Shown here piece by piece: positions 211-27,244 of a stretch of DNA of 64,000 nt. The position numbers and the translations under genes were made by a program. The notes under the pieces are model-generated. The model was given only the letters and a program-made list of their open reading frames with translations. It searched no databases and was not told where the DNA came from. Where the stretch lies: contig SVGD01000007.1 in assembly GCA_015056485.1 (NCBI GenBank), forward strand, positions 12,425 through 76,424, read 5' to 3'. The stretch comes from Clostridiales bacterium. GTDB taxonomy: Bacteria; Bacillota; Clostridia; TANB77; CAG-508. Position 1 is the stretch's first letter. Each line of letters opens with the position of its first letter.

Positions 211-340
211 TTGACATAATTTTTTGCAAAAACCTTGCAAAATCCTGCAGTATACATTCAATTTTTCAAGTGCTAAAATATTAATATGAAAAATTATATT
301 TAAAGAAAGCGAGAGAAAATCTTGGCTTTCTTTTTTTGTG
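211..340 (+). promoter_or_regulatory. Conserved regulatory cassette copy 1: TTGACA, palindrome TTTTTGCAAAAA (221-232), second TTGCAAAA (235-242), -35-like TATACA (251-256), 17-nt spacer, extended -10 TGcTAAAAT (271-279), leaderless mini-ORF ATG AAA AAT TAT ATT TAA (286-303, MKNYI), terminator hairpin AAAGAAAGC/GCTTTCTTT (302-333) plus T-run
   Basis: Near-identical copies at about 15737, 28050, 42524 and 55577. The -10 and the 17-nt spacing are conserved in all copies. The hairpin stem is conserved while the loops differ. Confidence 0.6.
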
Positions 341-4672: not shown

Positions 4673-6833
4673 ATGAACAAAAGATTAAGTTTAAAAATAG
4701 TAGGTTTAATATTTGCATTTATTATCAGTATATTTTTATCTAGCTTAATTACATTTTGTTTAATGCAAATATTTTTAAAACAACCAGAAAAAATATTAGA
4801 AATTAATGTTTTTAAAGTTATTGAAACTGTAAAAAGTTCAAAAGAAAGTATACAGATTTTCATATTAACAATTATATGCTTTATGCTTTTTGCAACAATT
4901 TCAATTTTTAGATTCTTTAGAGGAAAGAATTATCATAGCAAAACTTATAAAGTAACAGATAACATAGAAATTCCAATGCCTGTTGGGCTTCATCAAAATC
5001 AGCACGGTTCTGTATGGTGGCTAAGCAAAAAGAAATTCAAGAAAACATTTGGCGTAAATACGATAGATGAAGAAAATCCAACAATAAAGGCTTTATTGGA
5101 AAAGGCAGAAGAAGATAGAGGGATAATTGAAAAATCAGAAAAAGATAAAAACACAAAATTAAATTTAGAAGTAGAGCCTTTACCAGAAGAATTAAAAAAA
5201 CCAATATTTAAAAAAGGTGGATTAGTTGTTGGAAAAAAAGACAGGATAATATTTAAACCTTATATAAAAAAGATAAGAATATTCAAAACAAATAAATATC
5301 TAAAAATTCCAACAATTAAAACAAGAAAAGTAGAAGATGTTTATTTTATAGATGATGATTTACATTCGATTACTATAGGTGCAACAAGATCAGGTAAGAC
5401 AAGAAGTTTGGTTCTTCAAAGCATAAATAACATAGCTTTAGCAGGCGAAAATATGGTAATTAGTGATCCAAAAGGAGAATTATTTGAATATACCTGTGTT
5501 GAATTAAAAAGATTAGGATATAACGTATTAACACTAGATTTTAAGACACCACTTAAAAGCTCAAAATATAATTTCCTACAGCCAGTTATTGAAGCAATAA
5601 AACAAAAAAATACACCAAAAGCAGAAAACTATGCAAGTGATATTGTACAAAGTTTAGTTGGAGATGTTAAAGGAAATGGAGAAGCTATTTGGAACAATGG
5701 AGAAAAAGCTGTAATAAGAGCAACTATTATGGCTGTTGTTATGGAAAATATTGAGAATCCTAAACTACAAAATTTACCTAATGTATATCACTTTATAGCT
5801 GAAATGTGTAAAGAACAAGAGGATAAAACAACACTAATAGATACATATTTAGACTTTTTAAAAGAAATAGATAATACGCACCCTGCTATTGCAAGTTTTG
5901 CTCCAGCCCAGATGGCGGCGAGCAAAACGAGAGCGTCTTTTTACACTTCTGCATTATCGACATTAAATATATTTATGGACAGTTATGTAGCAAGTATGAT
6001 TAGTGAAAATGAAATAGATATAAACAAATTTAATGAAGAAAAAACGGCTTTGTTTATGATACTTCCTGATGAAAAAACAACTTTTTATGGTTTATGTAGT
6101 TTATTTGTTAATCAAGTATATACAAAACTTGTAGAAATGGCTGATGAACGTGGTGGGCGTTTAAAAATACGTACGAATTTTGTATTAGACGAATTTCGGA
6201 AACTTTTCACAAATACCAAATTTTCGGTGGTTTTTTAACTGTTGGTGGTCGGAAGACGGAATTAGATTCAATTTATTTGTACAGTCATTTAGTCAGCTAA
6301 ATGAAAAATATGGAGATAATACAGCTCAAAACATTCTTGATAATGCTTATGTGTGGAATTATCTTCGTACGAGTAATGAAACAACAGCTGAAAAGATTTC
6401 CAAAAAAATTGGTACATATACTACAACAAGTTGGTCTGAAAGCAGTGATAAAAAATCTGATAATGGTGGAAGTAATTCAATGAACTTAATTTCAAGAGCT
6501 TTATTAACACCAGATGAAATATTAAGACTTCAAAGACCTTATTTGTTAGTTATGGCTTCAGGAACTGAACCTGCAATAACCAATTCTCCTGATTTAAGTA
6601 AATGGTTATTTAATCGACTTTTAGGATTAGGAGATAAAAACTGGAACATCAAAGTAAGACAGATGAGAGAAGACGCAAGAGAAATAAAAGAAATATCGCC
6701 ACTTCAATTATGGGATATTGATAAACAAACAATGGAATTAAAACAAATGAAAAAAGAAAAAGAACTTGAGGAAAGAAGATTAAACTTTATGAAAAGACAA
6801 GGTGGAATTGACTATCCAAAAGGAAATTTATAG
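4673..6833 (+). pseudogene. Type IV coupling protein (VirD4/TraG family), reading frame broken near 6185-6300 (track ORFs 4673..6238 and 6351..6833)
   Basis: N-terminal TM segments. Walker A 'ITIGATRSGKT...ISDPKGELFEYT' and 'FVLDEF' are present. The C-terminal TraG motifs '...RFNLFVQSFSQLNEKYGDNTAQNILDNAYVWNYLRTSNETTAEKIS' continue in another frame. Pieces of the expected motif (GNFSQIPNF / GGFLTVGG / RFNLFVQSFSQL) lie in three different frames within about 80 nt, next to homopolymer runs. Confidence 0.75.
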
Positions 6834-11370: not shown

Positions 11371-13202
11371 ATGAAAACAAAAGAAATTGAAATAATGCCT
11401 ATAAATCAAGAGTTATTAGCACTTATAACTCCACAAGGGATTGAATTAAAACATAATAAAGTGCAACTTGGAGAATATCAACATAAATTACAGTATGTAA
11501 GTGGCTATCCATCTGCAGTAAATGTAGGTTGGCTTTTAAATCTTAAAGACATACCAAATACAACAGTAAGTCTTGTAATAGCACCAATAGAAAATGTGCA
11601 AGAATATGTAGAAGGAATATCAAAAGGACTAACAACAGATAAAAATATTTATAATACAACTAATAACGAAGCTTTGAAAACACAAGCTGAATTTAAAATA
11701 AGATCAGCAGAAAAGATAATAAAAGATATAACAGTTGATAATATTCCGTATGTAAATGTATCTTTTGTATCAAACACAATTGGCGAAAATGATAATAATT
11801 TTAGCGAAAATTGTAGAACTGTAAGAAATAAAATTGCAGGTATGGGATTAAAAGCAAGAGTTCCTGCATTTACACAAGAAAAAGCATTAAGACAGAGTTC
11901 TCCATATGATACTTATTATCAAGATATAACTAAAATATCTAATAAAACAATGAGCTTAGAAGCATTGTTTTTAGGATTACCTTTTTCAGGAAGTGGATTA
12001 GTAGATGTAGAAGGTTATTATTTAGGAACTGATGAAGATGGAAGAATGATAGCTGTTTCGCCATTTTTCAAAGGAAATGACAGAACTAATTCTAACATTG
12101 TAATTGAAGGTTCTTCTGGTTCAGGAAAATCATTTTTGGCTAAAAAAATAATGCTAAACGAATGGTTAAATCGGTACAAAAATTTTTGCAATTGATCCTG
12201 AATCAGAACTACGCCCTATGTGTAAATTATTGGGTGGAAAATGGATTGATTGTTCAGGAGGAACTGGAAAAAATGTAGGAAGAATAAATCCGTTGCAAGT
12301 AAATCCATTGCCTAAAATTACAGATTTTGAAGATGATGAAGAAGAAGAATATATTTCAAAAAAGTCAGCATTAGGTTTACATTTAGATTTTTTAAGTACA
12401 TTTTTTAAATTATATTATCCTGAAATAACTTCTCTGCAAATGAGCTTATTGATGGAGATATTAGAAGAGTTATATAAAAACTTTAATATTACATATGACA
12501 CAGATATAACAAATATTGATTCAAATAAATTTCCTATTATGGAAGATTTATATGAGTTATTATTAAAAAAAGTAAATTCAAATATCGAGCATAAAAGAGA
12601 AATTGAAGAAATAAGAGCAGTTGTAAGAGAACTTTCAATTGGTCATCACGGAGAAATATTCAATGGTTATACTTCATTAGATTTGGACAGTAGCTTTATA
12701 TGTTTAGATGTTTATAGTTTACAAGGAGCTTCTGAAAAAGTAAAAAGATGTCAGTATTTTAATATATTAAGGTATTGTCAAGATCAAGCTTTTAAAAACA
12801 GAGAAGAGCGTTGTTATGTGGTTTGTGATGAAGCATATTTATTAGTTGATAGAAAAGTACCACAAACAATAGAATTTTTAAGAAATTTCTGTAAGCGTGC
12901 AAGAAAATATGAATGTGGCCTAATGACAATTACACAAAGTTTGGTAGACTTTTTAGCACCAGAAGTTAAGATGTATGGACAAGCATTACTTGACAACTCA
13001 ACTTATAAATTCTTTTTCGGAATAGATCGGAAAAGATTTAGAGGAAGTAGTAAATCTATATAATTTGAATCAAGAAGAAAAAGCTATATTAAGTCAAAAA
13101 GATAAAGGACGTGGATTATTCTTTGTTGGTTCAGGCCATACGTTAATTAATGTTAAAGCTCTTGATTGGGAAAAAGAATATTTAATTGGTGGTGGAAGAT
13201 AA
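11371..13202 (+). pseudogene. VirB4/TcpF-like conjugation ATPase, interrupted by frameshifts near 12180 and 13040 (track ORFs 11371..12195, 12218..13063; C-terminal tail to about 13202)
   Basis: Walker A 'VIEGSSGSGKSFLAKKIM' is present. The continuation 'AIDPESEYRALCKLLGGKWIDCSGG...INPLQV' and the C-terminal tail 'YNLNQEEKAILSQKDKGRGLFFVGSGHTLINVKALDWEKEYLIGGGR*' are in shifted frames. Both breaks sit in A/T homopolymers. Confidence 0.75.
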
Positions 13203-13913: not shown

Positions 13914-14249
13914 ATGAAAGAAAAACAAGACTTAAAAAAACAATTAATTATATTAAGTATAGTATTAGTTTTAGTAATTATTTTAGCAATTATAATGAAT
14001 ATGAATAGCAGAGAAAATGAAAGCTATACAAAGATAAAGGATTCTACTGAAAATCAAACTACAACACAAGAGCCAAGTGTTGAGGATTTTATGGATAAAT
14101 TAAAAGGGTTAGTTGAAGAATCTACAACAAGTACAAATGAAAATACTACAAATGAAGAACAAAATTCTATTAATTATGAGGAAACAGAAATAATAGAGTT
14201 AGATACAGGAGAAATTGTTTTATTTAATGAACAAGATCACGGAGAATAA
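13914..14249 (+). CDS. Small membrane-anchored acidic/Thr-rich protein
   Basis: N-terminal TM (ILSIVLVLVIILAIIM), RBS AAAGGAG upstream. Confidence 0.5.
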   Translation: MKEKQDLKKQLIILSIVLVLVIILAIIMNMNSRENESYTKIKDSTENQTTTQEPSVEDFMDKLKGLVEESTTSTNENTTNEEQNSINYEETEIIELDTGEIVLFNEQDHGE

Positions 14250-14265
14250 AAGGGAGAGTTGATCA

Positions 14266-15450
14266 ATGGAGAATGATAGATTATATAAGAAATATATTTA
14301 TATTTCAAAAGAACCACGAGCAATAATTGAAGAGTATTGCAAAGAACACAGAATTAATTTAGTAATGAGATTTATAAATGAATATAATTTAAAAAAATTC
14401 CTAGAAACAGAGTTGAGAAATTTGAATGGCGTAGATTATTTAATAATTGATTTACAAGCAATTATTAATACTACACCAGAAAATGAGATTGCTAGTTCCA
14501 TAGAACTTATTAGAAGAATGTATAATGTTAGAATCATTATATTAGCAGAAGGGTACAAAGAAGGAAATGTACTTTTAGGAAGGATTTTTAATTTAGGCAT
14601 TTATAATATTGTTACAGCAAGAAATGATGTTATGTTTGCAGAAGAAATTGAAAGAGTTTTTTCAGAAGAAGGTATGACTTTTGGAAATGCAATGAAATAT
14701 AAAATAAGTGATAGTATGTTAGTAATTAATAAAACAACAAAAGTTGTAAAAGAAAATATAAAAAGAGCTAAACAAACTATTACAATTGGTATTGCAGGAA
14801 CAGAAAAACATATAGGAGCTACAACTGTTGCTATAAATATAGTGAAATATCTATCAGAATTAACAAATGTTACAGCTTGCTATATTGAAAATAATAATCA
14901 TAATTCAATATATAGCTTGGTAGAAGATGAAAGTTTACAAACAGTTTATAATGAAGTTTTAAAGAAAATTACATATGAAGGTATTGATTTATATGAAAGA
15001 CCAGAGAATCTTGCTGATATTTTAAAATTTGAATACGAATTTTATGTATTTGATTTTGGGAATTTTGAAGAAATGTCCAAAGAAGAAATATCTTCATTTT
15101 TGACAAGAGATTTAAAAATTATTGTATCTGGTAATAAAACTTGGGAAATAAGCAAATTAATTGAAACATTTATGATAATTGGCGAAGATATAAACTCTTA
15201 TCTAATATTTAATTTTGTCAGAAATGAGAATAAAGAAACGTTTAGAGAAAGTCTAGGAAAGTTTTGGAAAGAAAGGGCTTCATTTAGTGAATTTGTTCCT
15301 GAACCTTTTATAGTAGGAAACAGAAAGTTTTATGAAACAATATTAAAAGACTATTTATTAAATACTAATATAGAGGAAGTGAAGGAAAAAAAGGGAATAT
15401 TTAATATATTAAAAAATAAAAAAGGAAAAGAAAATGTTAAAAAGAAATAA
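14266..15450 (+). CDS. Protein with N-terminal receiver-like region and degenerate ParA/MinD-like P-loop (TadZ/CpaE-like architecture)
   Basis: 'ITIGIAGTEKHIGATTVAINIVKYL' sits where a deviant Walker A (KGGxGKTT) would be, but it is degenerate. N-terminal roughly 130 aa are alpha/beta-like. The assignment is tentative. Confidence 0.35.
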   Translation: MENDRLYKKYIYISKEPRAIIEEYCKEHRINLVMRFINEYNLKKFLETELRNLNGVDYLIIDLQAIINTTPENEIASSIELIRRMYNVRIIILAEGYKEGNVLLGRIFNLGIYNIVTARNDVMFAEEIERVFSEEGMTFGNAMKYKISDSMLVINKTTKVVKENIKRAKQTITIGIAGTEKHIGATTVAINIVKYLSELTNVTACYIENNNHNSIYSLVEDESLQTVYNEVLKKITYEGIDLYERPENLADILKFEYEFYVFDFGNFEEMSKEEISSFLTRDLKIIVSGNKTWEISKLIETFMIIGEDINSYLIFNFVRNENKETFRESLGKFWKERASFSEFVPEPFIVGNRKFYETILKDYLLNTNIEEVKEKKGIFNILKNKKGKENVKKK

Positions 15451-15745
15451 GCAAAAATCAATTTATGATAAGGCACTAGAAAAAAAGAAAGAGAACTTAG
15501 AAAGAGAAAATCTTTATAAAAATCTTGATTTAGATCGAGAGAAAAATACAATTATTTTTGAACAAAAAAATAATACATTCATTAAAGTATTGAATTTTTT
15601 GTTAGATACAATTGAAAGAATAATAAAATTTTTTATTATTATAATTGCTTTTATATTATTAACTATTGGAGCAACAGTATTATTCAATCCTGGTTTGAGG
15701 GAGAATCTGTTAGAAATAATTAACAATATAAATATATTGACATAA
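15434..15745 (+). CDS. Small membrane protein
   Basis: 103 aa with a C-terminal hydrophobic helix. Ends inside cassette copy 2. Confidence 0.45.
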   Translation: MLKRNKQKSIYDKALEKKKENLERENLYKNLDLDREKNTIIFEQKNNTFIKVLNFLLDTIERIIKFFIIIIAFILLTIGATVLFNPGLRENLLEIINNINILT

Positions 15746-15806
15746 TTTTTTGCAAAAACATTGCAAAATTCTGCAGTATACATTCAAGAAATAAGGTGCT
15801 AAAATA
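15737..15806 (+). promoter_or_regulatory. Regulatory cassette copy 2 (promoter part): TTGACA 15737-42, palindrome 15746-57, TATACA 15777-82, extended -10 TGcTAAAAT 15797-15805
   Basis: Same sequence family as copy 1. The downstream leader differs; see the finding on 15826..15957. Confidence 0.6.
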
Positions 15807-15974
15807 TAGTTACAAATTAAGAAAAAGGTATGTACTTTTTAAATAAGTATGTAGAGTAAAGCTATATTTTTAAAAATATTATTCTTGCTCCTTTCGGTAA
15901 TATTTTTTGTAATCCCCTTTTATATTTCTTGATCTGCATACTTATTTAAGGAGTACATAAAAAAGGAGGGTAAA

Positions 15975-16394
15975 ATGAAGAAGAAAATAATAATCATATC
16001 AATAATACTACTTGTTATAATTCTAATTATAGTAGGAATTGTTTTATACAAAAATTTTGATAAAACAGATTATGACAGAGTATATATAAGTTCATTTGAT
16101 ATTGATGGAAGATTAGCTGAATATAAGTTTAAGCCAGGAGTAGATACAACAGAAACTTGTAAAATTAAATTTAAGTTAAAAGAAAATTTAAAAGACAACA
16201 TTCGCATAAGTCTTTATAAAATAGAAGATGGAAGAGAATTAAATGTTAAACTGAATGAAAATCTAGAAACAGCTGAATTGCAAAATATTAATGAATTAGA
16301 ATTAAAGCTAGTAGTATATATAGAAAAATCATATGAATTGTTAGATAAAGACTATATTGATATAGGCTATTTATCTATAAATAATGCTAACTAA
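15975..16394 (+). CDS. Membrane-anchored protein (N-terminal TM), unknown function
   Basis: RBS AAAAGGAGGG. 'IIIISIILLVIILIIVGIVL' is a TM helix. Confidence 0.55.
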   Translation: MKKKIIIISIILLVIILIIVGIVLYKNFDKTDYDRVYISSFDIDGRLAEYKFKPGVDTTETCKIKFKLKENLKDNIRISLYKIEDGRELNVKLNENLETAELQNINELELKLVVYIEKSYELLDKDYIDIGYLSINNAN

Positions 16395-16448
16395 AGATAA
16401 AATATATAAGATACAAAAGATAAAATTAATAAAATACTAAAGACAAAA

Positions 16449-16480
16449 GCCAAGAACAGTAGTTCCTGGCTGATTTTATT
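16449..16480 (+). terminator. Intrinsic terminator-like hairpin AGCCAAGAAC-agtag-GTTCCTGGCT plus T-rich tail
   Basis: 10-bp stem with one mismatch, downstream of 15975..16394. Confidence 0.45.
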
Positions 16481-16579
16481 AATATTGAAAAAAACATTAA
16501 AAAGTGCTATAATTATAATAGATTTACAATAAGTAAATTCAGTAAAAACACTAATGTCGACAACACGGAGGAAAAGATT

Positions 16580-16741
16580 ATGATTGACACCAAAAATTAC
16601 ATCTTAGTAGAAGGCGAAGGATATGCCAACAAGTCTGAAGCATACGATACGATTCGGTTGTGCTACAGCACTCTGAAAGGCGTAACTACCTATTACGACA
16701 ATGGCCTTTGGTACATTGTTCAATCTAAGGCTCTTATGTGA
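16580..16741 (+). CDS. Small (53 aa) hypothetical protein encoded in a locally GC-rich (about 40%) segment
   Basis: RBS ACGGAGGAAAAG then ATG. Protein is MIDTKNYILVEGEGYANKSEAYDTIRLCYSTLKGVTTYYDNGLWYIVQSKALM. Not in the ORF track because it is under 60 aa. The antisense track ORF 16604..16918 is rejected. Confidence 0.45.
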   Translation: MIDTKNYILVEGEGYANKSEAYDTIRLCYSTLKGVTTYYDNGLWYIVQSKALM

Positions 16742-16896
16742 GCTATCATCACAGTAATGTGGAGGAGGGAAGCACCTGCAACCCTCTTTTATTTTTGGAA
16801 AAAATTTGATATTTTTTAGCGAAAAATAAGCCATTTTATTGTCGAAAATAATGATTTGTGATAGAATAACTCCTGTAAGGAGTATAGGGGGTAAAA

Positions 16897-18357
16897 ATGG
16901 ATAGTAATATAAAATCAATTATAGATAAAATATGGTTAGTTTTCCATTCAGGAGGAGTAGCAAATCCTTTAACTTGCATAGAGCAAATTACTTATTTATT
17001 ATTTATTAAAGGATTAGATGATATAGAATTAAAAAATGAAAAAGATGATGTTTTATTAGGTATAACATCTAAAAGAATATTTGATGAAGATCATCAAGAT
17101 TGTAGATGGAGTATTTTTAAAGAATACGAAGCTTCAAGAATGTTCAAAGTAATGCAAGAAAAAGTATTTCCATTTATTAAACAATTAGGAAATGACAAAG
17201 AATCAAGTTATGCAAAATATATGGAAGACGCAATGTTTTTAGTACCAACACCAATAGTATTACAAAAAGTTGTATCTTCATTAGATAAAATAGAAATGAA
17301 TGATAGAGATACAAAAGGAGATTTGTATGAATATCTTCTTTCTAAACTATCAACAGCAGGAACAAATGGTCAATTTAGAACTCCAAGACATATTATTAAA
17401 ATGATGGTTGAATTAATGCAACCTACTGAAAAAGATGTTATTGTTGATCCTGCTTGTGGAAGTGCAGGTTTTTTAGTTGAAGCAGGGGAATATTTAAGAA
17501 ATAATAGACCTGAATTATTCAATTATGAAGAAAGTCTACAACATTTTAATAATACAATGTTTTATGGATTTGATATGGATAGAACAATGTTAAGAATTAG
17601 TGCAATGAATCTTATTCAACACGGAATTGAAAATCCTAATATTGAGTATAAAGATTCGCTATCAGAAGATAACCAAGATGAAAGCAAATATACTTTGATA
17701 TTAGCAAATCCACCATTTAAAGGTTCTATAAATAGTGATATAACATCAAAAAAATTACTAGATATGACAAATAAAACGAAGAAAACAGAATTATTATTTT
17801 TAGCACTATTTTTAAAAATATTAAAAATTGGTGGAAGATGTGCTTCAATAGTACCAGATGGAGTGTTGTTTGGAAGTTCAAATTCTCATAAAGCAATCCG
17901 AAAAGAACTAATTGAAAATCATAAATTAGAAGCTGTTATTTCAATGCCTAGTGGTGTGTTTAAACCTTATGCAGGAGTTTCTACTGCTATACTAATATTT
18001 ACTAAAACAAACGCAGGTGGAACAGATAAAGTTTGGTTTTATGATATGACTGCAGATGGATATAGTTTAGATGATAAAAGACAGAAAGTTAAAGAAAATG
18101 ATATTCCTGATATAATAGAAAGATTTAAAAATAGATATTCAGATGAAGAACAAGAAAGAGGAAGAACAGAAAAGTCATTTTTTATAAATAAAGAAGAAAT
18201 AACAGAAAATGATTATGATCTATCAATAAAAAAATATAAAGAAGTTATTATAGAAAAAAGAGAATGTCGAGATACTAATGTAATTTTAGAAGATTTAAAA
18301 AAGGGACAAGAATTGCTAAAAAAAGGAATTGAAGATTTAGAGGAATTATTAAAATGA
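16897..18357 (+). CDS. hsdM: Type I restriction-modification system, DNA methyltransferase subunit M
   Basis: Motif I 'VDPACGSAGFLV' and motif IV 'ILANPPFKG' of N6-adenine methyltransferases. Followed by overlapping hsdS and hsdR. Confidence 0.9.
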   Translation: MDSNIKSIIDKIWLVFHSGGVANPLTCIEQITYLLFIKGLDDIELKNEKDDVLLGITSKRIFDEDHQDCRWSIFKEYEASRMFKVMQEKVFPFIKQLGNDKESSYAKYMEDAMFLVPTPIVLQKVVSSLDKIEMNDRDTKGDLYEYLLSKLSTAGTNGQFRTPRHIIKMMVELMQPTEKDVIVDPACGSAGFLVEAGEYLRNNRPELFNYEESLQHFNNTMFYGFDMDRTMLRISAMNLIQHGIENPNIEYKDSLSEDNQDESKYTLILANPPFKGSINSDITSKKLLDMTNKTKKTELLFLALFLKILKIGGRCASIVPDGVLFGSSNSHKAIRKELIENHKLEAVISMPSGVFKPYAGVSTAILIFTKTNAGGTDKVWFYDMTADGYSLDDKRQKVKENDIPDIIERFKNRYSDEEQERGRTEKSFFINKEEITENDYDLSIKKYKEVIIEKRECRDTNVILEDLKKGQELLKKGIEDLEELLK

Positions 18358-19541
18358 AAAAAATAAAATTAAAAGATTGTGGAACTATTTTAACAGGAAA
18401 TACACCAAGCAAAAAAGTTGAGGAGTTTTACTCTTCTAATGATATTAACTTTTTTACACCAGGTGATTTTTCAGAAAACAGATTAAATTGGCTAAATAAA
18501 TCAAATAATTATATTTCAGTAATAGCAAAAGATAAAGCTAGAATTATACCAAGTGGAAGTTTATTAGTAACGTGTATTGGTACAATTGGAAAAGTTGGAA
18601 TAAATGACAAAGAATGTGCATTTAATCAACAAATAAATGCTATAATACCAAATGAGAGTATTATAAACAAAAAATATTTAGCTTATTGGTTTATAGCAAA
18701 TTCAAAATATTTACAGGAAAAAGCAAATGCTCCAGTAGTACCGATTTTAAATAAAACTGATTTTGAGAATATAGAGATTGATATTGTCGATTTAGAAGAA
18801 CAAAATAATATAGTAGAGAAAATTGAAAAAATACAAAATTTAATAATTACTAATGAAAAACAAATTGAATTATTAGATGAACTGATAAAAGCTAAATTTA
18901 CAGAAATGTTTGGAACACCTATTACTAATTCAAAAAATTGGGATAAAAAACATTTAAAAGAACTTACAGAAACAATAGTAAATGGAAATACTCCGAAGGG
19001 TGGAGATAAAGTTTATGTTGATGAAGGTATAATGTTTTTTAGAAGTCAAAATGTATGGAAAAACAGATTAGAAATGGATAACATTGCTTATATTGATATT
19101 GATACACACAATAAAATGAAAAAATCAAGTTTAAAACATAATGACATTTTAATAACAAAGACTGGAAGAATAAATACAGAAAATAGCAGTTTAGGAAGAA
19201 CAGCTATTTATACAGGAGAAGATGATAAAGCAAACATAAATGGACACGTTTATCTAGTTAGATTAAAGAAAAATATAATTAATCACGAGTTTGTTCTGTT
19301 TATTCTTACTTCTGATGAATATAGGGAACATATTAGAAATGTTTGTGTTGGAGGAATAGATAAAAGACAATTAAACAAAGACCATATAGAAAATTTTCCT
19401 ATTATAATTCCACCAATAGAACTTCAAGAAGACTTTGCTAAAATTGTTAAAAAAATAGAAAAGCAAAAAATAATGTATGAAGAAAATTTAAAAAGTCTTG
19501 AAGAATTAAATGAAAAGTTAATGAATAAATATTTTAATTAG
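18354..19541 (+). CDS. hsdS: Type I restriction-modification system, specificity subunit S (two target-recognition domains)
   Basis: 395 aa. The conserved central repeat '...LEEQNNIVEKIEKIQNLI...' lies between two variable halves. The start overlaps the hsdM stop. Confidence 0.85.
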   Translation: MKKIKLKDCGTILTGNTPSKKVEEFYSSNDINFFTPGDFSENRLNWLNKSNNYISVIAKDKARIIPSGSLLVTCIGTIGKVGINDKECAFNQQINAIIPNESIINKKYLAYWFIANSKYLQEKANAPVVPILNKTDFENIEIDIVDLEEQNNIVEKIEKIQNLIITNEKQIELLDELIKAKFTEMFGTPITNSKNWDKKHLKELTETIVNGNTPKGGDKVYVDEGIMFFRSQNVWKNRLEMDNIAYIDIDTHNKMKKSSLKHNDILITKTGRINTENSSLGRTAIYTGEDDKANINGHVYLVRLKKNIINHEFVLFILTSDEYREHIRNVCVGGIDKRQLNKDHIENFPIIIPPIELQEDFAKIVKKIEKQKIMYEENLKSLEELNEKLMNKYFN

Positions 19542-19550
19542 GGGAAAAAT

Positions 19551-22500
19551 ATGTCAAATTTTGAGTTTTTAAAGAAAAATAAATTATTTAAAAGTTTTGC
19601 AGGAGCAAGTATTGAAGCAGAAGAAGGATTAAGAACCAATCCTGTAACTTGTATAATGCTTAGTAGAAAAGCATTAGAATTGGGAGTTAAATGGCTATAT
19701 GCGAATGATAAATTATTGATAATGCCATATCAAAACAATTTGTCAGCTCTTATACATACAATAACTTTTAAAAATATAGTAAATGAAGAAATAAGAAAAG
19801 GAATAGATTTTATAGTTAAGAAAGGTAATTTTGTTGTTCATACAAATGCTGATGTTTCGAGAGATGAAGCTATTCTAGTTTTAAAATGTTTATTTAACTT
19901 TATGAAATGGATCTATTTTAATTATGATAAAAATTATGAAAATATTGAATTTGACATTAATTTCATTCCACAAGAGAACAATGATAATATTAAACAAGCT
20001 GAAAGAGAAAAATTAGAAGTTGAATTACAAGAGCAAACAAAAAAACTAGAAGAAACCTTAAGAGAAAATGAAGAATTAAGAAAACAACTAACTGAAGAAA
20101 GAGAAAATAAACAAAAAAGTAAAGATTTTGTTGTAAAAGATTTATCTGAATTTGAAACAAGAAAACAATTTATTGATTTAGATTTACAAATTTCTGGTTG
20201 GGATTTTAAAGAAAACATTACAGAAGAATTAGAAGTTCAAGGTATGAAAAATTCCGAAGGTATTGGATATGTAGATTATGTTTTATTTGGAAAGAATGGA
20301 TTACCTGTAGCAGTTGTTGAAGCAAAAAGAACAAGCAAAAATGCTCACGAAGGAAAGCAACAAGCGAGCCTTTATGCAGACTGTTTAGAAGAAAAATATG
20401 GTCAAAGACCTTTAATATATTATACAAATGGTATTGAGATTTATTTTTGGGATAATCTTGATTATCCAGAAAGAAAAGTTCAAGGCTTCCATACACAAGA
20501 TGAATTACAAAGAATTATAAATAGAAGAAAGTCAAAAGAAGATTTAGAACATATCTTTATTAATGATGATATAACAAATAGACCTTATCAATTAGAAGCA
20601 ATAAAAAGAGTATGTGAATCTTTTGAAAATAAACATAGAAAAGCACTATTAGTTATGGCCACTGGTACTGGAAAAACAAGAACTGCAATATCATTAGTTG
20701 ATGTTTTAACAGGAAAAGGTTGGGTTCAAAATGTATTGTTTTTAGCAGATAGAACAGAATTAATAAAACAAGCAAAGAAAAATTTTGTAAAATTATTACC
20801 TGATATGTCTTGCTGTAATCTTTTAGATTCAAAAGATAATCCAGAAGATTCAAGAATTGTATTTTCAACATATCAAACAATGATAAATGCTATTGATACA
20901 ATGAAATGCAAAGATGGTAAAAAATTATTTACACCAGGACATTTTGATTTAATAATTATAGATGAAGCTCATAGAAGTATATACAAAAAATATCAATCAA
21001 TATTTGAGTATTTTGATAGTTTATTAGTTGGATTAACAGCTACTCCAAGAAGTGATGTTGATAAAAATACATATAGCTTCTTTGAATTAGAAAATAATGT
21101 TCCTACGTTTGCTTACGAATATCAAGAAGCAATTGATGATGGATATTTAGTTGATTATCATAATATAAAAACAACTACTGAATTTTTGGAAAGAGGAATT
21201 AAATATAGTCAATTAAAAGATGAAGAGAAAGAAGAATATGAAAACTTATTTGAAGAAGAAGAAAGCGTTCCAGAAGAGATAAATTCATCAGCAATAAATT
21301 CCTGGTTATTTAATAGAGATACAATTAAAAAAATATTAGAAACATTAATGGAAAAAGGATTAAAAGTTGAGGGTGGAGATAAATTAGGAAAAACAATCAT
21401 TTTCGCAAAGAATCATAGACACGCAGAAGAAATAAGAAATGTATTTGATTCTTTATATCCACATTATAATGGAGAATTTGCAAGGGTTATAGATAACAAA
21501 GTAAATTATGCAGATACACTTATAGAAATGTTTGAAGATCCTAAAAAATTACCACAAATTTCTATATCAGTTGATATGTTAGATACAGGTATAGATGTTC
21601 CAGAAATTTTAAATTTAGTATTTTTTAAACCTGTAAAATCTAAAGTTAAATTTTGGCAAATGATAGGTAGAGGAACTCGCTTATGTAATAATTTGTTTGG
21701 AGAAGGAGTTCATAAAAAGGAATTTTACATATTTGATTGTTGTAATAACTTTGAATTTTTTGAAGAAAATGAAAAAGGTATAGAAACAGGAAATACAGAG
21801 GGATTGACAGAAAAAATCTTTAACTTAAAATTAGATTTTATTGTAGAATTGCAAAATTTAGATTATCAAGATATAGATGAATATGTGAAATACAGAGAAG
21901 AATTAGTTCAAGATTTTATAACAGCAATACAGAATCTAAATGGAGAAAGTTTTGTTGTGAAATCAAAGAAAAAATTTATTGAAAAATATTCAATATTAGA
22001 AAGTTGGAATAGTATTTCAAGTATTGATAAAATGGAAATAAAAGAAAATCTTACACCAATATTTGTAGTTACAGATTTAGATGAATCAGCAAAAAGATTT
22101 GATAATCTAATATATTCTTTACAAATAAGAAAGATGAAAGAAAAAAACTACAGTATGCAAGTTAATGGTATTATAAGCTTAATTGAGAGTTTAAAAGAAC
22201 TAGGAACTATATCACAAATTAAAGAAAAAGCAGAAATAATAAAAATAACTTGTAAACAAGAGTATTGGGAGCGAGCAACATTTTTTGATATAGAAAATAT
22301 AAGAAAAGAACTAAGAGATTTGATAAAATTTATAGAAAATCCACCAAGAAAAATATGGAATATAGATATAGAGGATCAAATTATAGTAGATGAAGAACAA
22401 AAGAATGTTATTAGAAATAACTTTGAAGATTATAAGAAAAAAGTAAAAAAATTCTTAGATGGCAATATGGATAATCTAGTAATATATAAAATAAAACATA

Positions 22501-22889
22501 ATCAATTATTAACAGAAAGTGAAAAAAGTGATTTAGAAAGAATTATGTTTGAAGAATTAGGAAACAATAAAGAATTTGTTGATACATTTGGAGATTCAAA
22601 CGTAGTACAAGTTGTTAGGAATTTAGTTGGATTAGATAGAGAAACAGCAAATCAAATTTTTTCAAAATATATAAATGATTATAGATTAAATAGCAAACAA
22701 ATACAATTTGTTAAGACTTTAAAAGAATATATAATTGCAAATGGATTAATAAGCTTAGATAAATTAAGAGAACAACCATTTAGCACGATAGGTTCTGTAT
22801 CTGATATTTTCAAAGATAATATAAATACTTTCAATGAAATTAAAGAAGATATTGAAATGATAAATGAAAGTACAATTAAATTAGCCTAA
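19551..22889 (+). CDS. hsdR: Type I restriction enzyme, restriction (helicase/endonuclease) subunit R, with N-terminal extra domain and coiled coil
   Basis: PD-(D/E)xK-like 'VDYVLF...VAVVEAKR'. Helicase motif I 'LVMATGTGKT' and motif II 'IIIDEAHRS'. 1112 aa. Confidence 0.9.
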   Translation: MSNFEFLKKNKLFKSFAGASIEAEEGLRTNPVTCIMLSRKALELGVKWLYANDKLLIMPYQNNLSALIHTITFKNIVNEEIRKGIDFIVKKGNFVVHTNADVSRDEAILVLKCLFNFMKWIYFNYDKNYENIEFDINFIPQENNDNIKQAEREKLEVELQEQTKKLEETLRENEELRKQLTEERENKQKSKDFVVKDLSEFETRKQFIDLDLQISGWDFKENITEELEVQGMKNSEGIGYVDYVLFGKNGLPVAVVEAKRTSKNAHEGKQQASLYADCLEEKYGQRPLIYYTNGIEIYFWDNLDYPERKVQGFHTQDELQRIINRRKSKEDLEHIFINDDITNRPYQLEAIKRVCESFENKHRKALLVMATGTGKTRTAISLVDVLTGKGWVQNVLFLADRTELIKQAKKNFVKLLPDMSCCNLLDSKDNPEDSRIVFSTYQTMINAIDTMKCKDGKKLFTPGHFDLIIIDEAHRSIYKKYQSIFEYFDSLLVGLTATPRSDVDKNTYSFFELENNVPTFAYEYQEAIDDGYLVDYHNIKTTTEFLERGIKYSQLKDEEKEEYENLFEEEESVPEEINSSAINSWLFNRDTIKKILETLMEKGLKVEGGDKLGKTIIFAKNHRHAEEIRNVFDSLYPHYNGEFARVIDNKVNYADTLIEMFEDPKKLPQISISVDMLDTGIDVPEILNLVFFKPVKSKVKFWQMIGRGTRLCNNLFGEGVHKKEFYIFDCCNNFEFFEENEKGIETGNTEGLTEKIFNLKLDFIVELQNLDYQDIDEYVKYREELVQDFITAIQNLNGESFVVKSKKKFIEKYSILESWNSISSIDKMEIKENLTPIFVVTDLDESAKRFDNLIYSLQIRKMKEKNYSMQVNGIISLIESLKELGTISQIKEKAEIIKITCKQEYWERATFFDIENIRKELRDLIKFIENPPRKIWNIDIEDQIIVDEEQKNVIRNNFEDYKKKVKKFLDGNMDNLVIYKIKHNQLLTESEKSDLERIMFEELGNNKEFVDTFGDSNVVQVVRNLVGLDRETANQIFSKYINDYRLNSKQIQFVKTLKEYIIANGLISLDKLREQPFSTIGSVSDIFKDNINTFNEIKEDIEMINESTIKLA

Positions 22890-22893
22890 AATT

Positions 22894-22931
22894 AAAGTCA
22901 AGAGCATATTAAGGTTCTTGACTTTAAATAA
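22894..22931 (+). terminator. Hairpin AAGTCAAGA-(12)-TCTTGACTT after hsdR
   Basis: 9-bp perfect stem followed by an A/T-rich tail. Confidence 0.5.
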
Positions 22932-22972
22932 CAAAAGATAAGTATAGAGAAATTTAGAAAGTAGGGAAAGTA

Positions 22973-23224
22973 ATGGGGAAAATTTATAAAGAAGCAAACA
23001 AATGTGAAACTGAAACTACTATAAATGTGTTGTATAGTGAAAAAATTCTATCAATCTATACCAATAAAGTTGATTTACAGAGAAGACTATATAAAATTTT
23101 AGGAGAACCAAAAAAAGAGTATATAAAAGGAAGATCAGTAGTAGGAAGTTGTTGGGAAATACCTTTGACAGATGTGAGTAAAATAAATAAAATTATTTTA
23201 AAAGCAGATTTATATGGAATGTAG
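22973..23224 (+). CDS. Hypothetical protein (83 aa)
   Basis: ORF with RBS AGTAGGGAAAG upstream. Confidence 0.45.
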   Translation: MGKIYKEANKCETETTINVLYSEKILSIYTNKVDLQRRLYKILGEPKKEYIKGRSVVGSCWEIPLTDVSKINKIILKADLYGM

Positions 23225-23245
23225 GAAAATAAGAAAGAGGGAAGA

Positions 23246-23743
23246 ATGGAAGTTTTAAAAGCAATACCAAATTATTTATTTATAGTTATTTTTGATATTA
23301 TAGAATTTTTCTATATGCTAATATCTAATATTATATGTTTAATAAAGAAGAAAAAATATAGTTATGAGGATATTATTGCTGTTGAATATATAGAAAATTG
23401 TCCACCAGATTTTGAATCTGATTTGATTTATAATACAAAATATTTTAAAATAGATTTAGAAAAAGAAAAAAAGAATTATGAAAATATTATTCAATTAGAA
23501 AACAAAGATTTTCATAAAATAATAGATGTTTTAAAAAATAATAAAATATTCAAATATAACAAATACATTTTTAAATTTTATATTACTCCTTTTTCTGAAT
23601 TATTTATGGAAGATGGAGGAAGTGGAGAAGAAATATTGATTATTCATTTAAAAGATAATATAAAGTATGAAATTAGTTCGAGATGTTCATCAAAAAGATT
23701 TGACAATACAATAATGTATATAAAAGATATTATGAAGATATAG
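23246..23743 (+). CDS. Hypothetical membrane protein (N-terminal TM)
   Basis: RBS AAGAGGGAAG. N-terminus 'NYLFIVIFDIIEFFYMLISNIICLI' is hydrophobic. Confidence 0.45.
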   Translation: MEVLKAIPNYLFIVIFDIIEFFYMLISNIICLIKKKKYSYEDIIAVEYIENCPPDFESDLIYNTKYFKIDLEKEKKNYENIIQLENKDFHKIIDVLKNNKIFKYNKYIFKFYITPFSELFMEDGGSGEEILIIHLKDNIKYEISSRCSSKRFDNTIMYIKDIMKI

Positions 23744-23748
23744 GAGAA

Positions 23749-24198
23749 ATGAATATGAATAAAATGTATGAAAAACAATTAGACTTTTTATATGATATAT
23801 TTAATAGAAATATGGACGAATTTGATACTATTGATGATTCGTATGGGTTTTGGGATAATTCAGATCCTGCAATGGAGGGATATGGTTTTAAATTTTATGG
23901 TAAAAAGGATAATTTTCAACCAACTTTTAGAGTAAGATGTGATTTAAACGAAAAACAACCAAGTATAACAATTTTTGTAGAAAACAGAAATGGAAATGTA
24001 GTAATAAATGGGAATTTGGTTGCTATGTATACTATGAAGATTGACTATAAAGAAAATATGGCAGAAGAAGAACTAAAAGTAATTGATGAAAAATATAGGA
24101 AAATGGTAAAATATACACTTGATAAATGGGCTTGTTATAATAAACAAAATCAATTAGGATATGTAGAAGAAGATGATGAAGAAAGAGAAGAATTTTAA
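23749..24198 (+). CDS. Hypothetical acidic protein
   Basis: RBS TAGGAGAAATG. 149 aa. Confidence 0.45.
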   Translation: MNMNKMYEKQLDFLYDIFNRNMDEFDTIDDSYGFWDNSDPAMEGYGFKFYGKKDNFQPTFRVRCDLNEKQPSITIFVENRNGNVVINGNLVAMYTMKIDYKENMAEEELKVIDEKYRKMVKYTLDKWACYNKQNQLGYVEEDDEEREEF

Positions 24199-24215
24199 TA
24201 TTAAAAAGTGATTAG

Positions 24216-24252
24216 TGAAGAGAAGAAATTTTGAATTTCTTCTCTTTTTGAA
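24216..24252 (+). terminator. Intrinsic terminator GAAGAGAAGAAATT-ttg-AATTTCTTCTCTT plus TTTT
   Basis: Near-perfect 13-bp stem plus a T-run directly after 23749..24198. Confidence 0.7.
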
Positions 24253-24409
24253 TGTTATATATTCAAATGAAATTATTAAATATACAACTACTCCTATTTA
24301 GCGTAGAAACTTCGCTAAAAAGAGTAGAAAATGTTGTTTTATAGATTAATTTGATGTAAAATAATACCAAACGAACTAAGAATTAATGCACAAGGAGATG
24401 AAAAAATAA

Positions 24410-25153
24410 ATGAAATTAGTATCTTGGAATGTAAACGGATTCAAGTCTATAATGAGTAAAGATTTTATGCCTATATTCAATACAATCAATGCAGATATAT
24501 TTTGTGTTCAAGAAACAAAGATACAAGAAGGACAATTTGAATTAGAGCTTCCAAATTATTATCAGTATTGGAATTATTCAGAGAAAAAAGGATATTCTGG
24601 AACAGCAGTTTTTTCAAAAGAGAAACCATTAAATGTATTATATGGTATTAATGCTGAAGAATTAGACAACGAAGGGAGAGTTATAACATTAGAATATGAA
24701 GACTTTTATTTAGTTAATACATATACTCCTTGCTATCAGAAGGACATAAAAAGACAAAATTATAGATTAGAATGGGACGAAAAATTTATAGAATATATAG
24801 AAGAATTAGAAAATAGAAAAAACGTAATTATGTGTGGAGATTTTAATGTAGCATATCAAGAATTGGATTTAGGAAAATTAAACAAAGAAATATTGGGTTT
24901 TTCAGATGAAGAAAGACAACAATTTGGTAAATTATTAGAAATGGGATATATAGATACATTTAGATATAAAAATCCAAATTATAGAAAGTATACCTGGTGG
25001 AAAAATAACAAAAGAGAAATTGAAGACAATGGTTGTAGGCTAGACTATTTTTTAATTTCAGAAGAATTAAAAAATAAAATTATAGCAGTGCAAATAAGGA
25101 ATGATATAGGAGGATCAGACCACTGTCCGATTGTGTTGAAAATAAGAATGTAG
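24410..25153 (+). CDS. xth: Exodeoxyribonuclease III / AP endonuclease (Xth/ExoA family, EEP fold)
   Basis: Near-colinear with cellular ExoA/ExoIII: MKLVSWNVNGFKS...ADIFCVQETK...KKGYSGTAVFSK...EGRVITLEYEDF...CGDFNVAYQELD...GFSDEERQQF...RLDYFLISEEL...GGSDHCPIVLKI. Only 18 nt separate its stop from the RT start. Confidence 0.9.
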   Translation: MKLVSWNVNGFKSIMSKDFMPIFNTINADIFCVQETKIQEGQFELELPNYYQYWNYSEKKGYSGTAVFSKEKPLNVLYGINAEELDNEGRVITLEYEDFYLVNTYTPCYQKDIKRQNYRLEWDEKFIEYIEELENRKNVIMCGDFNVAYQELDLGKLNKEILGFSDEERQQFGKLLEMGYIDTFRYKNPNYRKYTWWKNNKREIEDNGCRLDYFLISEELKNKIIAVQIRNDIGGSDHCPIVLKIRM

Positions 25154-25170
25154 AATATACAATAAATGAT

Positions 25171-27244
25171 ATGCGTTTTTACAATAAAATTGATTTCCCT
25201 GTTGAAGTATTAAGAAAAGCTTGGCAAGAATTTGAATGGGATAAAGCAGAAGAAAAAGTATTTCAATGGCAAAAAGATTTAACAAAAGTAGCATTTAGAA
25301 AAGATTATGAAGAAATAAAAAAAATACAAAATAAAATAGTTAGTTCGTTAGAAGCAAGAGCATTAGCTGTCAGAAGGGTTTCAGAGCAAACAAAGTCATC
25401 TCCTGGAATTGATGGTGTAAGATGGAGAAAAGACGAAGAAAAAATGCAAGCTACTATTTCATTAAATAGTACAGAATACAAGTCAAAACCATTAAGAAGA
25501 ATAGTTATACAAGATAAAAGAGGAATAAAAGAACGTAGGATTGGTATTCCTGCAATGAATGATCGTGCAATGCAAGTATTACATTCTTATGCACTAGAAC
25601 CTGTTGCAGAAGCATTTGGAGATAGAAAATCATTTGCATTTAGAAAAGGAAGAACAGCTTTAGACGCACACGCTTGTTTATGGAATAATTTATGTGATGA
25701 AACGTGTCCTGAATGGGTTTTAATTGCAGATGTAGAGAACTATTACGAATCTGTTTCTCACGATTGGTTAATGAGAAATATTCCAATGAATAAAAGAGTA
25801 TTGAAAGAACTGCTGAAGTCTGGTGTATGTTTTAATGGAGAGATTTTTCCTACTGAAGTTCGGAATTTCACTTGGTTGTTCTTTATCTCCTATGTTAGGA
25901 AATATGATACTAGATGGCCTACAATATAAGCTTTACGATTTACAAGGAGAAAAAATTACAGATTATAAAGATGGGTATATGGTTAGATTTGCAGATGACT
26001 TTGTAATAACAGCAAGAAGTAAAGAACAGGCTGAAAAGTTTAAAGTGGTAGTTGAAAATTTTATAGGAGAAAGAGGTTTAAGGCTGTCAGAAAGGAAAAC
26101 AAAGATTGTTAATGTTAGGGAAGGTTTTGATTTTTTATCAAGGCATTATATAAAAATTCATAATCAAATTAATGTTATTCCTAGCGAAAAATCCGTAACA
26201 AATTTAGAAAAAGAGTTAGAAGATTTAATATTAAATCCTGAAAAGCATTGGACACAAAGATCACTTATTCAATCAATAAACTCTAAATTGTATGGTTGGG
26301 CTACTTATCACAGAGTAGAAGAAGCAAAAGATATTTTTTCTCATATAGATGTCCTGGTTAATGCCTTGTTATTAAAGTTAATGCAAAAAACATATCCTAA
26401 TAAAAGTTTACAGCAATTAAAAAATAAATATTGGTATAAGTTACCTGACGGGAGATATGTATTTGCATTAGTAACTAATAGAAATTTTTCAGTAATTAAT
26501 TTATCAGATATTATTTTGGTAAGACACAAAAGAATGGATTTAAAGAAAAACATATTTTTAGATGATGATTATTTTGAGGAAAGAGAACAACTACAAGAAA
26601 TAAACAAAATATCTGGTAAATACAAAAGTGTTTGGGAAAGACAAGGTGGTAAATGTTATTTTTGTGGTAAGCCAATAGGTAAAGAACAGGATAAAAGGAT
26701 TATTTATAAAACATTTACAAGGATTAATACTATTGAAGATATGGCCTATGTTCACGAGTTTTGTAAAGATGATGATGTACTGTATCTTGATACAGACATT
26801 GTCCATATAAATAATAGTAAGTTAAATAATATCCTTAAAGATATACAAAAAGTAAATCCTAAAAGTAAAACAAAAAAATGGAAGTTTAGAGCGTTAGAAG
26901 ATTATTTTAGAAAAACAAATACAACTCCTATAACATTGAAATTTGCTGAAATTGAAAAAATAATTGGATTTAAACTTTGTGGATCTGCACTAAAATATCC
27001 TTCATATTGGTATCAATCAAGAAAAGGTAATATCTCAAATGCTTGGCTCAATCAAAATTATGAAATTTTGAAATTAGATTTAGAGGGTAAAAAAATAACT
27101 TTTAGAAGGGGTGTAAATAAAAGTTCAAAATTAAATATCCCACAAGTGTTTTTAACCAACAAAATTCCAGATGGTGCAAAATATGAGTTGGAGGAATTTT
27201 TTAAGTATATAACAAAAAAATATGGATTAAGCAATAAAAAATAA
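25171..27244 (+). CDS. Group II intron-like reverse transcriptase/maturase with HNH-like Cys motif and about 170-aa C-terminal extension. No intron RNA. Single-nt frameshift near 25855-25865 (track ORFs 25171..25929 and 25823..27244).
   Basis: RT0/1 'ALAVRRVSEQTKSSPGIDGV', RT2 'RIGIPAMNDRAMQVLHSYALEPVAEAFGDRKSFAFRKGRTALDA', RT3 'WVLIADVENYYESVSHDWL', RT4 'FGISLGCSLSPMLGNMILDGL' (second frame), RT5 'VRFADDFVI', RT7 'GFDFLSRHY' and an X/maturase region '...SINSKLYGWATYH' are all present. The RT4 motif continues only after a one-nt shift around 'gaagttcgg'. Confidence 0.8.

Follow-up and report, generated by a model that had tools for sequence, protein, structure and literature searches.

The 64,000-nt stretch of contig SVGD01000007.1 analysed here (assembly GCA_015056485.1, positions 12,425 to 76,424; hereafter the window) is a conjugative element with all of its genes on the + strand. 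Between one of its promoters and the gene at 15975-16394, which encodes a 139-amino-acid (aa) membrane protein, lies a leader whose two ends pair, as + strand RNA, in a long helix (P1) that is conserved and bound to this one gene wherever the leader was found. P1 (26-27 bp) is predicted to be the base of a rod-shaped hairpin of ~131 nt that fills nearly the whole 5' untranslated region (UTR) of the gene. The leader is an evolutionarily maintained RNA structure that is undescribed and without an Rfam family, a family-specific cis element of a familiar kind. Its effects on translation and mRNA stability we infer from folding models and known enzymology: tentatively, and with somewhat less than an even chance of being right, it is taken for a cis-acting 5'-UTR leader in which P1 would clamp anti-Shine-Dalgarno (anti-SD) motifs off the ribosome binding site (RBS) and would stabilize the mRNA or be a target of RNase III. 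The features that define the helix and its gene are:

15829..15855, + strand: 5' arm of P1 (repeat finder, fold, alignment and shuffles)
15933..15959, + strand: 3' arm of P1, which holds AAGGAG at 15948-15953 (repeat finder and alignment)
15975..16394, + strand: gene for the 139-aa protein, with an N-terminal membrane helix and a beta-sandwich domain; always the gene served by the leader

The inverted repeat and helix P1

A sequence-only reading of the window had placed the arms of an inverted repeat at 15826-15850 and 15933-15957; both were recovered with offsets of 1-4 nt, as ATGTACTTTTTAAATAAGTATGTAG (15830-15854) and CTGCATACTTATTTAAGGAGTACAT (15934-15958), and were extended with a repeat finder to 15829-15855 and 15933-15959 (27 nt, 89% Watson-Crick, 77-nt spacer). 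The three mismatches counted in that reading exist in DNA and not in RNA: at each, the 5' arm has T where the 3' arm has G, i.e. a U.G wobble, and because this is true of all three, P1 is unbroken as + strand RNA (24 Watson-Crick and 3 U.G pairs, duplex energy -33.7 kcal/mol); the - strand would have A.C at these positions. Leaders of the RNase III type contain at least ~20-22 bp of uninterrupted double-stranded RNA, cleavage of which leaves 2-nt 3' overhangs, and P1 with its 26-27 contiguous pairs (3 G.U) exceeds this length. In the 64-kb window it was the sole 27-nt inverted repeat (span <=250 nt) with at least 24 Watson-Crick pairs, or with 27 of 27 pairs when G.U was included, and none of 40 dinucleotide-preserving shuffles of the window equalled it (maxima 23 Watson-Crick, 25 Watson-Crick plus G.U). 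Fold prediction for 15806-15990, a check that the sequence-only reading had proposed for 15806-15975, gave -41 kcal/mol compared with -27.8 +/- 3.8 kcal/mol for shuffles (z = -3.5; 0 of 200 as good). By strand, the RNA fold was -41.0 kcal/mol for + and -28.5 kcal/mol for -; the corresponding DNA folds were -19.1 kcal/mol (z = -4.05) and -17.4 kcal/mol, a small gap.

The hairpin, which is long, imperfect and biased to one strand and lies in non-coding DNA of a conjugative element, could also act as single-stranded DNA, the + strand hairpin serving in conjugation or rolling-circle replication as a single-strand origin or priming signal and its location in a 5' UTR being accidental; G.T wobbles are tolerated in DNA hairpins, and the DNA of the + strand folded slightly better than that of the - strand. 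Such a function is considered quite improbable. The strand asymmetry was far larger for RNA than for DNA. Nor would an origin need the fixed site that the hairpin occupies, always behind a conserved promoter and in front of the RBS of a single gene, with 3-11 nt left to the SD. Similarity to ssoT of pTA1060 did not go beyond chance short words, the CS-6 motif TAGCG[TA] was absent from both strands, and positions 14000-17000 had no match among 72,556 plasmids (distant mode).

Homologous leaders and conservation

Homologues were gathered from metagenome and assembly loci by two routes, a scan for the promoter module and a search with the 139-aa protein, the latter being free of RNA bias. The total was 46 homologous leaders with 18 distinct sequences, from Clostridia metagenome-assembled genomes (MAGs) and gut metagenomes, and 46 of 46 lay directly 5' of the 139-aa gene. 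A profile of the leader core matched exactly once per locus and nowhere else in about 108 sequences, the whole window included, which rules out a dispersed repeat. Gene order did not vary (VirB4-like ATPase, M23 peptidase, three small or unknown genes, promoter, leader, 139-aa gene, variable cargo), with the leader at the boundary between type IV secretion genes and variable cargo in what is a family of conjugative elements of uncultured gut Clostridia.

The same single copy bears on the idea that the leader is a functionless relic of a small mobile element (miniature inverted-repeat transposable element, MITE) bounded by terminal inverted repeats of 27 bp and a duplicated target. In the window, AAAAAGG does adjoin the left side of the repeat and AAAAAAGG its right side; this duplication is confined to the clade of the window, however, and with one copy per locus, a constraint on the leader that exceeds that on the coding sequence, and compensatory changes in the arms (both below), an origin of this kind is scarcely credible. 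A retron msr/msd or an integron attC-like site was also considered and rejected: the leader stays with the 139-aa gene irrespective of the cargo, and it is in the variable cargo, 10 kb away, that the reverse transcriptase is found.

Covariation was analysed in an alignment of 14 variants, the folding model described below was run on 16 variants, and the small reading frame in the 5' arm was counted in 18. RNAalifold recovered the same P1 from the 14 variants, with 98.9% of the cells of the helix paired, and a register shift of 1-3 columns lowered pairing to 33-54%. Of its 26 pairs, 17 were invariant, 4 changed on one side (U-A/U.G/C-G), 2 changed on both sides (A-U/G.U/G-C; G-C/A-U in 4 sequences) and 3, including both basal pairs, showed only occasional unpaired cells. 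The known relatives are close, so the support that the aligned sequences give through covariation is thin but real. Mean identity was 84% for the leader (start to ATG) and 76% for the coding sequence (third codon positions 54-74% relative to the window copy); as judged from these alignments, conservation is stronger in the leader than in the coding sequence. The different, long and structured leader that the sequence-only reading had noticed behind this promoter thus holds up, its long-range stem being a real, conserved RNA helix.

The leader interior and the ribosome binding site

The part of the leader enclosed by P1 and the site that follows it contain:

15872..15907, + strand: apical hairpin P2 (alignment), with an A/U stem (15872-15883 / 15896-15907) and a 12-nt, anti-SD-like loop CUUGCUCCUUUC at 15884-15895
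15914..15934, + strand: CU-rich segment CCCCUUUU (15914-15921) followed by UAUAUUUCUUGAUC; invariant, and predicted to be an unpaired bulge with P1 formed
15962..15977, + strand: real RBS AAAGGAGGG plus ATG (15975), beginning 3 nt past the base of P1

In the fold predicted for the window, P1 is followed by an extension of AAG/CUU and UAUA/UAUA, a 14-nt 3' bulge with CCCCUUUU and then P2. The P2 loop CUUGCUCCUUUC was identical in 14 of 14 aligned variants and the P2 stem changed only from U-A to U.G, although P2 is less certain than P1 in the folding models; the interior sequences were invariant across the alignment despite a variable predicted fold. The + strand of the window is 8.9% C, with CCCCTT present once in 64 kb, in the leader, and CTCCTT present 3 times compared with 32 times on the - strand; the leader contains two such rare anti-SD-like motifs 26 nt apart, both invariant, and a motif TATTATTCTTGCTC / TATATTTCTTGATC repeated at a distance of 44 nt. 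The AAGGAG that the sequence-only reading had located in the 3' arm, ahead of the real RBS, is present (15948-15953), and the real SD is GGAGGG at 15965-15970, outside P1, which ends at 15959.

P2 plus U6 was rejected as a weak terminator (its stem consists of A and U only, folding of the entire interior yields just -4.7 kcal/mol, and most relatives have UUUGG for the U-run), as was a terminator for antisense transcription, since relatives do not conserve the U-rich tract that follows the hairpin on the - strand. Rfam at gathering thresholds gave 0 matches in the whole window (riboswitches, T-boxes, leaders, small RNAs), and at E <= 10 positions 15700-16100 gave matches at chance level only (MIR828, 17.6 bits versus a gathering score of 69, and similar).

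When P1 was free to form in the folding model, the predicted probability that the SD is unpaired was 0.69-0.95 in 16 of 16 variants (~0.9 for the RBS of the window), and when the 5' arm was blocked it was 0.15-0.28, again in 16 of 16. With P1 open, the CU-rich segment was predicted to pair with the SD and the 3' arm; in the blocked state the model has UAUUUCUUGA pairing with the 3' arm and CCCCUUUU with the SD or, in one variant (L104), the loop GCUCCUUUC with the SD. Mutation of both motifs in silico raised the mean unpaired probability of the SD in the blocked state to 0.56, and mutation of a single motif had little effect. The idea of a clamp was retained because anti-SD motifs are rare and the double mutant makes the SD more accessible in silico. 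A specific latent RBS switch, by contrast, was rejected as a result, since a shuffled interior hides the SD equally, and is kept only as something that we infer.

In the mechanism that we tentatively favour, P1 would zip the U/C-rich leader into a rigid rod, which would keep the loop GCUCCUUUC and the bulge CCCCUUUU off the RBS 3 nt past the helix, so that the RBS would be open by default. If the 5' arm were unavailable, through slow long-range zipping, cleavage or a bound factor, the motifs and the 3' arm would fold onto the SD and translation would drop. A perfect 26-bp helix near the 5' end would further be expected to block 5'-to-3' decay and, by analogy with the Staphylococcus aureus cspA leader, to be an RNase III substrate. 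The 15975 gene would in this way be handled post-transcriptionally instead of via an early terminator.

Several points weigh against this mechanism. With the interior dinucleotide-shuffled, the unpaired probability of the SD in the blocked state was 0.25 +/- 0.12, and 27% of shuffles were at or below the native value; because the shuffled interior does likewise, hiding of the SD reflects composition and not arrangement, and any U-rich leader would hide an SD in the folding model. Covariation between SD and anti-SD was not seen among the leader variants, and a natural UU-to-AA change in CCCCUUAA (L009, L101-103, L111) is uncompensated. The inner fold (P2) is not the same across variants, some of which favour another inner hairpin in the models, and the invariant sequence of the unpaired interior is not explained by a simple stabilizer. 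As to P1 itself, double changes affect just 2 of the 26 pairs and 17 pairs never vary, so plain sequence conservation alone could maintain the pairing; the helix begins ~17 nt from the predicted 5' end and is not flush with it, and the start site is a consensus prediction only.

Invariance of the unpaired interior over 18 variants, in front of a protein that diverges down to about 60% identity, would be expected if the leader were a platform for a trans-acting RNA-binding protein, or the source of a small RNA (sRNA) that pairs with other SDs, and hence a regulator or sensor. The two very rare anti-SD-like motifs on the sense strand, both in predicted loops, and the repeated motif TATTATTCTTGCTC / TATATTTCTTGATC point the same way: C-rich loops of the staphylococcal RNAs RNAIII, RsaE and RoxS pair with SD regions of other mRNAs. 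As a lead only, another cassette of the element starts with a tandem SpoVG-domain protein, SpoVG being a nucleic-acid-binding family. This explanation is nevertheless judged unlikely. Complements to the loop GAAAGGAGCAAG and the bulge ATAAAAGGGGATTA occur in the window at chance level, specificity for a target in trans cannot be shown since any SD would match, and the leader is strictly tied to a single gene and abuts its RBS, which is why action in cis is favoured. By eye, 5-7 bp could be formed with the sister terminators, in the purine-rich 5' half of each; this pairing is not conserved and was rejected.

It is more doubtful still that the P1-clamped scaffold represents a new class of riboregulator in conjugative elements of gut Clostridia, either read by an RNA-binding protein of the element (e.g. 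the tandem-SpoVG protein of cassette 5) or freed by RNase III as an sRNA of ~100 nt that would repress ribosome binding on other cassette mRNAs. If this were true, the riboregulator would tie the expression of the boundary membrane protein to the promoter and terminator circuit of the element.

The small reading frame in the 5' arm

The 5' arm of P1 overlaps a short open reading frame (ORF):

15830..15859, + strand: mini-ORF MYFLNKYVE, ATG at 15830 and TAA at 15857-15859; lineage-specific, probably not translated

The sequence-only reading had described this mini-ORF, preceded by AAAAAGG, and had proposed that its translation melts the stem and so controls the downstream gene. A frame of nine codons from ATG to TAA behind an A/G-rich run is present in the window, and switches operated by a leader ORF are well known, e.g. 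in ermC and in repY/repZ of IncI-alpha. The proposed control did not survive comparison and ranks as highly improbable. Only 3 of the 18 leader variants have the ATG, its carriers being the window and its closest relatives (L092-94, L109); the other 15 have ATA or AGA at this site, mostly right after an in-frame TAG. The SD-like AAAAAGG stops 1 nt short of the AUG, too near for an SD, and is degraded to AAAAAAG in L109, and the AUG is buried in the 26-bp helix. In the folding models the real RBS, outside P1, is open already, and opening of the stem would hide it instead of freeing it.

In the ATG, the G belongs to a covarying P1 pair (A-U in 12 of 14 variants, G.U in L092, G-C in the window) and is therefore accounted for by the helix and not by coding; on this comparison of sequences, the mini-ORF is a side effect of a single covarying base pair within one clade. 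A start codon within a helix can thus arise from base-pair covariation without being a coding feature. Elsewhere in the leader, a search for a conserved small ORF found only a universal AUG-UAG start-stop that is buried in P1.

Promoter module, sister copies and transcriptional alternatives

The promoter of the leader is the second of five copies of a module:

15737..15805, + strand: promoter module copy 2, with TTGACA, direct repeats TTGCAAAA (15750-15757 and 15761-15768), CTGCAG, a -35-like TATACA (15777-15782) and an extended -10 TGcTAAAAT (15797-15805)

A consensus scan returned TATACA-17-TGcTAAAAT at 15777-15805 for copy 2, which would put the transcription start at ~15812, with P1 entirely 3' of it. 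The module (~70 nt) occurs 5 times in the window (213-311, 15739-15837, 28057-28155, 42526-42624 and 55579-55677) and is laid out as TTTTGCAAAAAnnTTGCAAAATnCTGCAGTATAC, spacer and extended -10, with TTGCAAAA-N3-TTGCAAAA just 5' of TATACA. Copies 1, 3, 4 and 5 have a canonical hairpin and U7 ~20 nt past the start. For copy 2 the sequence-only reading had claimed the absence of a short terminator, and no + strand terminator-like site was found from promoter to gene (15806-15975). Since its leader replaces the promoter-proximal terminator, the 15975 gene escapes the early-termination checkpoint, and copy 2 is the only cassette of the five-promoter circuit that bypasses such a terminator.

An exact-pattern scan located the module at 70 loci in MAGs labelled uncultured Clostridia, Clostridium and Bacilli (animal and human guts), with at least 8 different leader types behind it; 8 of the 70 loci bear the copy-2-type leader, each 5' of a 139-140-aa protein like that of 15975-16394. 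By its sequence, the arrangement looks like an element-wide circuit of promoter and early terminator, which would need an antiterminator; neither a sigma factor nor an antiterminator was recognized by Pfam in the window. The sequence-only reading had seen the same idea, a small ORF that controls an RNA structure, wired differently in the sister copies. That the copy 2 leader is distinct was borne out, but the small ORF of the sister leaders, ATGAAAAATTATATTTAA (283-300, 28127-28144 and 42596-42613), reads ATC... in many relatives, which have ATCAAAAATTATATG... there.

Two side observations concern the flanks of the sister copies. An XRE-type helix-turn-helix gene (55202-55579) ends right at promoter copy 5, whose first cassette gene (55722-56342) encodes the 206-aa protein with two SpoVG domains, and the end of another XRE-like gene precedes copy 1 (12-52 resembles 55385-55425).

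Sister promoters are followed by terminators, and antitermination therefore probably exists in the element. The copy 2 leader could accordingly be a transcription device, either a processive-antitermination RNA (like conAn2, put or EAR) that reads into the cargo or a zipper attenuator like cATT of pLS20; conAn2 likewise has a long-range inverted repeat round a structured centre, and in a zipper attenuator a long imperfect stem is lengthened when its flanks pair. We nonetheless regard a transcription device as very improbable. No terminator intervenes between stem and SD, the sequence after the 3' arm being AUAAAAAA, and the defining feature of a zipper attenuator is thus absent. Against a conAn-type system, the repeats of conAn2 are dispensable and conAn1 adjoins it upstream, where the gene here is that of a 103-aa membrane protein. 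Nor is read-through an obvious purpose, because a conserved terminator closes the unit and the cargo is served by a promoter of its own.

The 139-aa gene, its transcription unit and the conjugative element

The protein served by the leader belongs to a family of 140 database proteins without a Pfam domain. Its AlphaFold model (predicted local distance difference test, pLDDT, 88) shows a membrane helix and a beta-sandwich, for which no match in the PDB was found at E <= 0.001, only weak beta-sandwich neighbours. The protein had no match in Pfam, PHROGs or NCBIfam, and no relatives in viral contigs. Roles in exclusion or establishment are possible. The unit is closed by:

16448..16481, + strand: intrinsic-terminator-like hairpin AGCCAAGAAC-AGTA-GTTCCTGGCT, then GATTTTATTAA; ends the unit

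In 10 of 12 related loci the terminator after the 139-aa gene is strong, with a longer U-run and a covarying stem, and the version in the window is weaker. The promoter of the cargo follows at 16485-16513. As the conserved terminator stands directly after the gene, the unit of promoter, leader, gene and terminator is monocistronic. Its 3' UTR (16395-16447; also L002, L005, L095, L107 and others) contains 2-4 conserved tandem motifs like AUACAAAAGAUAAAA before the terminator, and the gene for the 103-aa membrane protein, which has no family match, is directly upstream of the copy 2 unit.

The element encodes a ParB-like protein, a MobL relaxase, a coupling protein, TrbL, pilins, an M23 peptidase, ArdC and a SpaA/thioester adhesin; a type I restriction-modification (R-M) system, a nuclease and a reverse transcriptase are found downstream of the leader unit. 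The cargo hot spot begins just 3' of the terminator of the 139-aa gene (window 16485-27244; L092-L113). In relatives it carries type I R-M, GIY-YIG, HEPN, pP_pnuc, NUDIX/acetyltransferase, a two-component system and zf_Tbcl; in the window, a 53-aa ORF (16580-16741) of visibly higher G+C precedes hsdM. The bypass of the promoter-proximal terminator at copy 2 points to a gene beside a hot spot for defence and cargo genes, with expression uncoupled from the other transfer genes.

Several long genes of the window appear to be split. The coupling protein (T4SS-DNA_transf) extends over two ORFs (4673-6238 and 6351-6833), the VirB4-like ATPase of 609-615 aa in relatives corresponds to two ORFs of 274 and 281 aa (11371-12195 and 12218-13063) without a Pfam match, and the reverse transcriptase occupies two overlapping frames (25171-25929, RVT_N/RVT_1, and 25823-27244, RVT_1/GIIM/DUF7662). 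Decay of the element in this copy, or frameshifts in the assembly, may account for this.

The gap that separates the ParB-like gene from the following ORF, upstream of the MobL relaxase, holds a 24-nt inverted repeat with a 5-nt loop (TTTCCTTATCCTGCCCTTAAATTT / AAATTTAAGGGAACACGAAAGAAA; 1719-1771), a candidate origin of transfer (oriT) or partition site. A 437-aa protein (39622-40935) contains six tandem repeats of 210 nt, each a DUF4379 treble-clef zinc finger, the SpaA/thioester-domain adhesin (1335 aa; 42664-46671) has three tandem repeats of 303 nt with ~90% identity, and a sortase gene is at 34877-35437.

Comparison with known systems

As a maintained structure on a mobile element, the leader adds to the few post-transcriptional devices known from conjugative elements of Gram-positive bacteria. 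Firmicute conjugative elements carry single-strand origins, e.g. sso1 of ICEBs1 (Wright et al. 2015, PMC4595007). With ssoA/ssoT the leader shares a strand-specific, imperfect hairpin of ~130-200 nt in non-coding DNA of a transferable element; it differs from them in having no sequence similarity or CS-6 motif and in being fixed in a 5' UTR beside an RBS. In the conAn2 RNA of pLS20 a long-range 20-bp inverted repeat flanks a structured centre that includes a patch rich in G+C (Miguel-Arribas et al. 2021, PMC8191782), and the leader resembles conAn2 as a non-coding region in a conjugation gene cluster with a long-range repeat and a structured centre with a C/G-rich patch; conAn2, however, measures 260-600 nt, follows the conAn1 gene and acts on terminators, and its inverted repeats can be dispensed with (PMC8191782).

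The zipper attenuator cATT of pLS20 prevents an intrinsic terminator just before the SD from forming, and many conjugative plasmids of Gram-positive bacteria are reported to carry such attenuators (Gonzalez-Alvarez et al. 2026, PMC13401043). Like cATT, the leader belongs to a Firmicute conjugative element and has a long imperfect central stem lengthened by complementary flanks, each of which is predicted to form a weak local hairpin as well. Without a terminator before the SD, the analogy with cATT, if it holds at all, would hold at the level of translation.

As in switches of the ermC type and in repY-repZ of IncI-alpha/IncB, three mutually exclusive pairings can be drawn (SD with CCCCUUUU, 3' arm with UAUUUCUUGA, 5' arm with 3' arm), and, as in SD/anti-SD switches, the state of an upstream helix is predicted to set the accessibility of the RBS. 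Those systems have a conserved, translated leader ORF and an SD that is sequestered at rest, whereas here the ORF is not conserved and the SD is predicted to be open at rest.

In S. aureus, RNase III cuts a long hairpin in the 5' UTR of cspA, which yields a stabler mRNA and better initiation (Lioliou et al. 2012, PMC3386247). The leader described here has no sequence relation to cspA, it has a longer helix, which encloses a large interior whose CU-rich loops are invariant, and its gene encodes a membrane protein on a mobile element and not a cold-shock protein. In both cases a long hairpin occupies most of a Firmicute 5' UTR of ~110-160 nt just 5' of the SD, and with 26 uninterrupted pairs the helix is long enough to be an RNase III substrate, which makes processing by this enzyme a candidate for the copy 2 leader as well.

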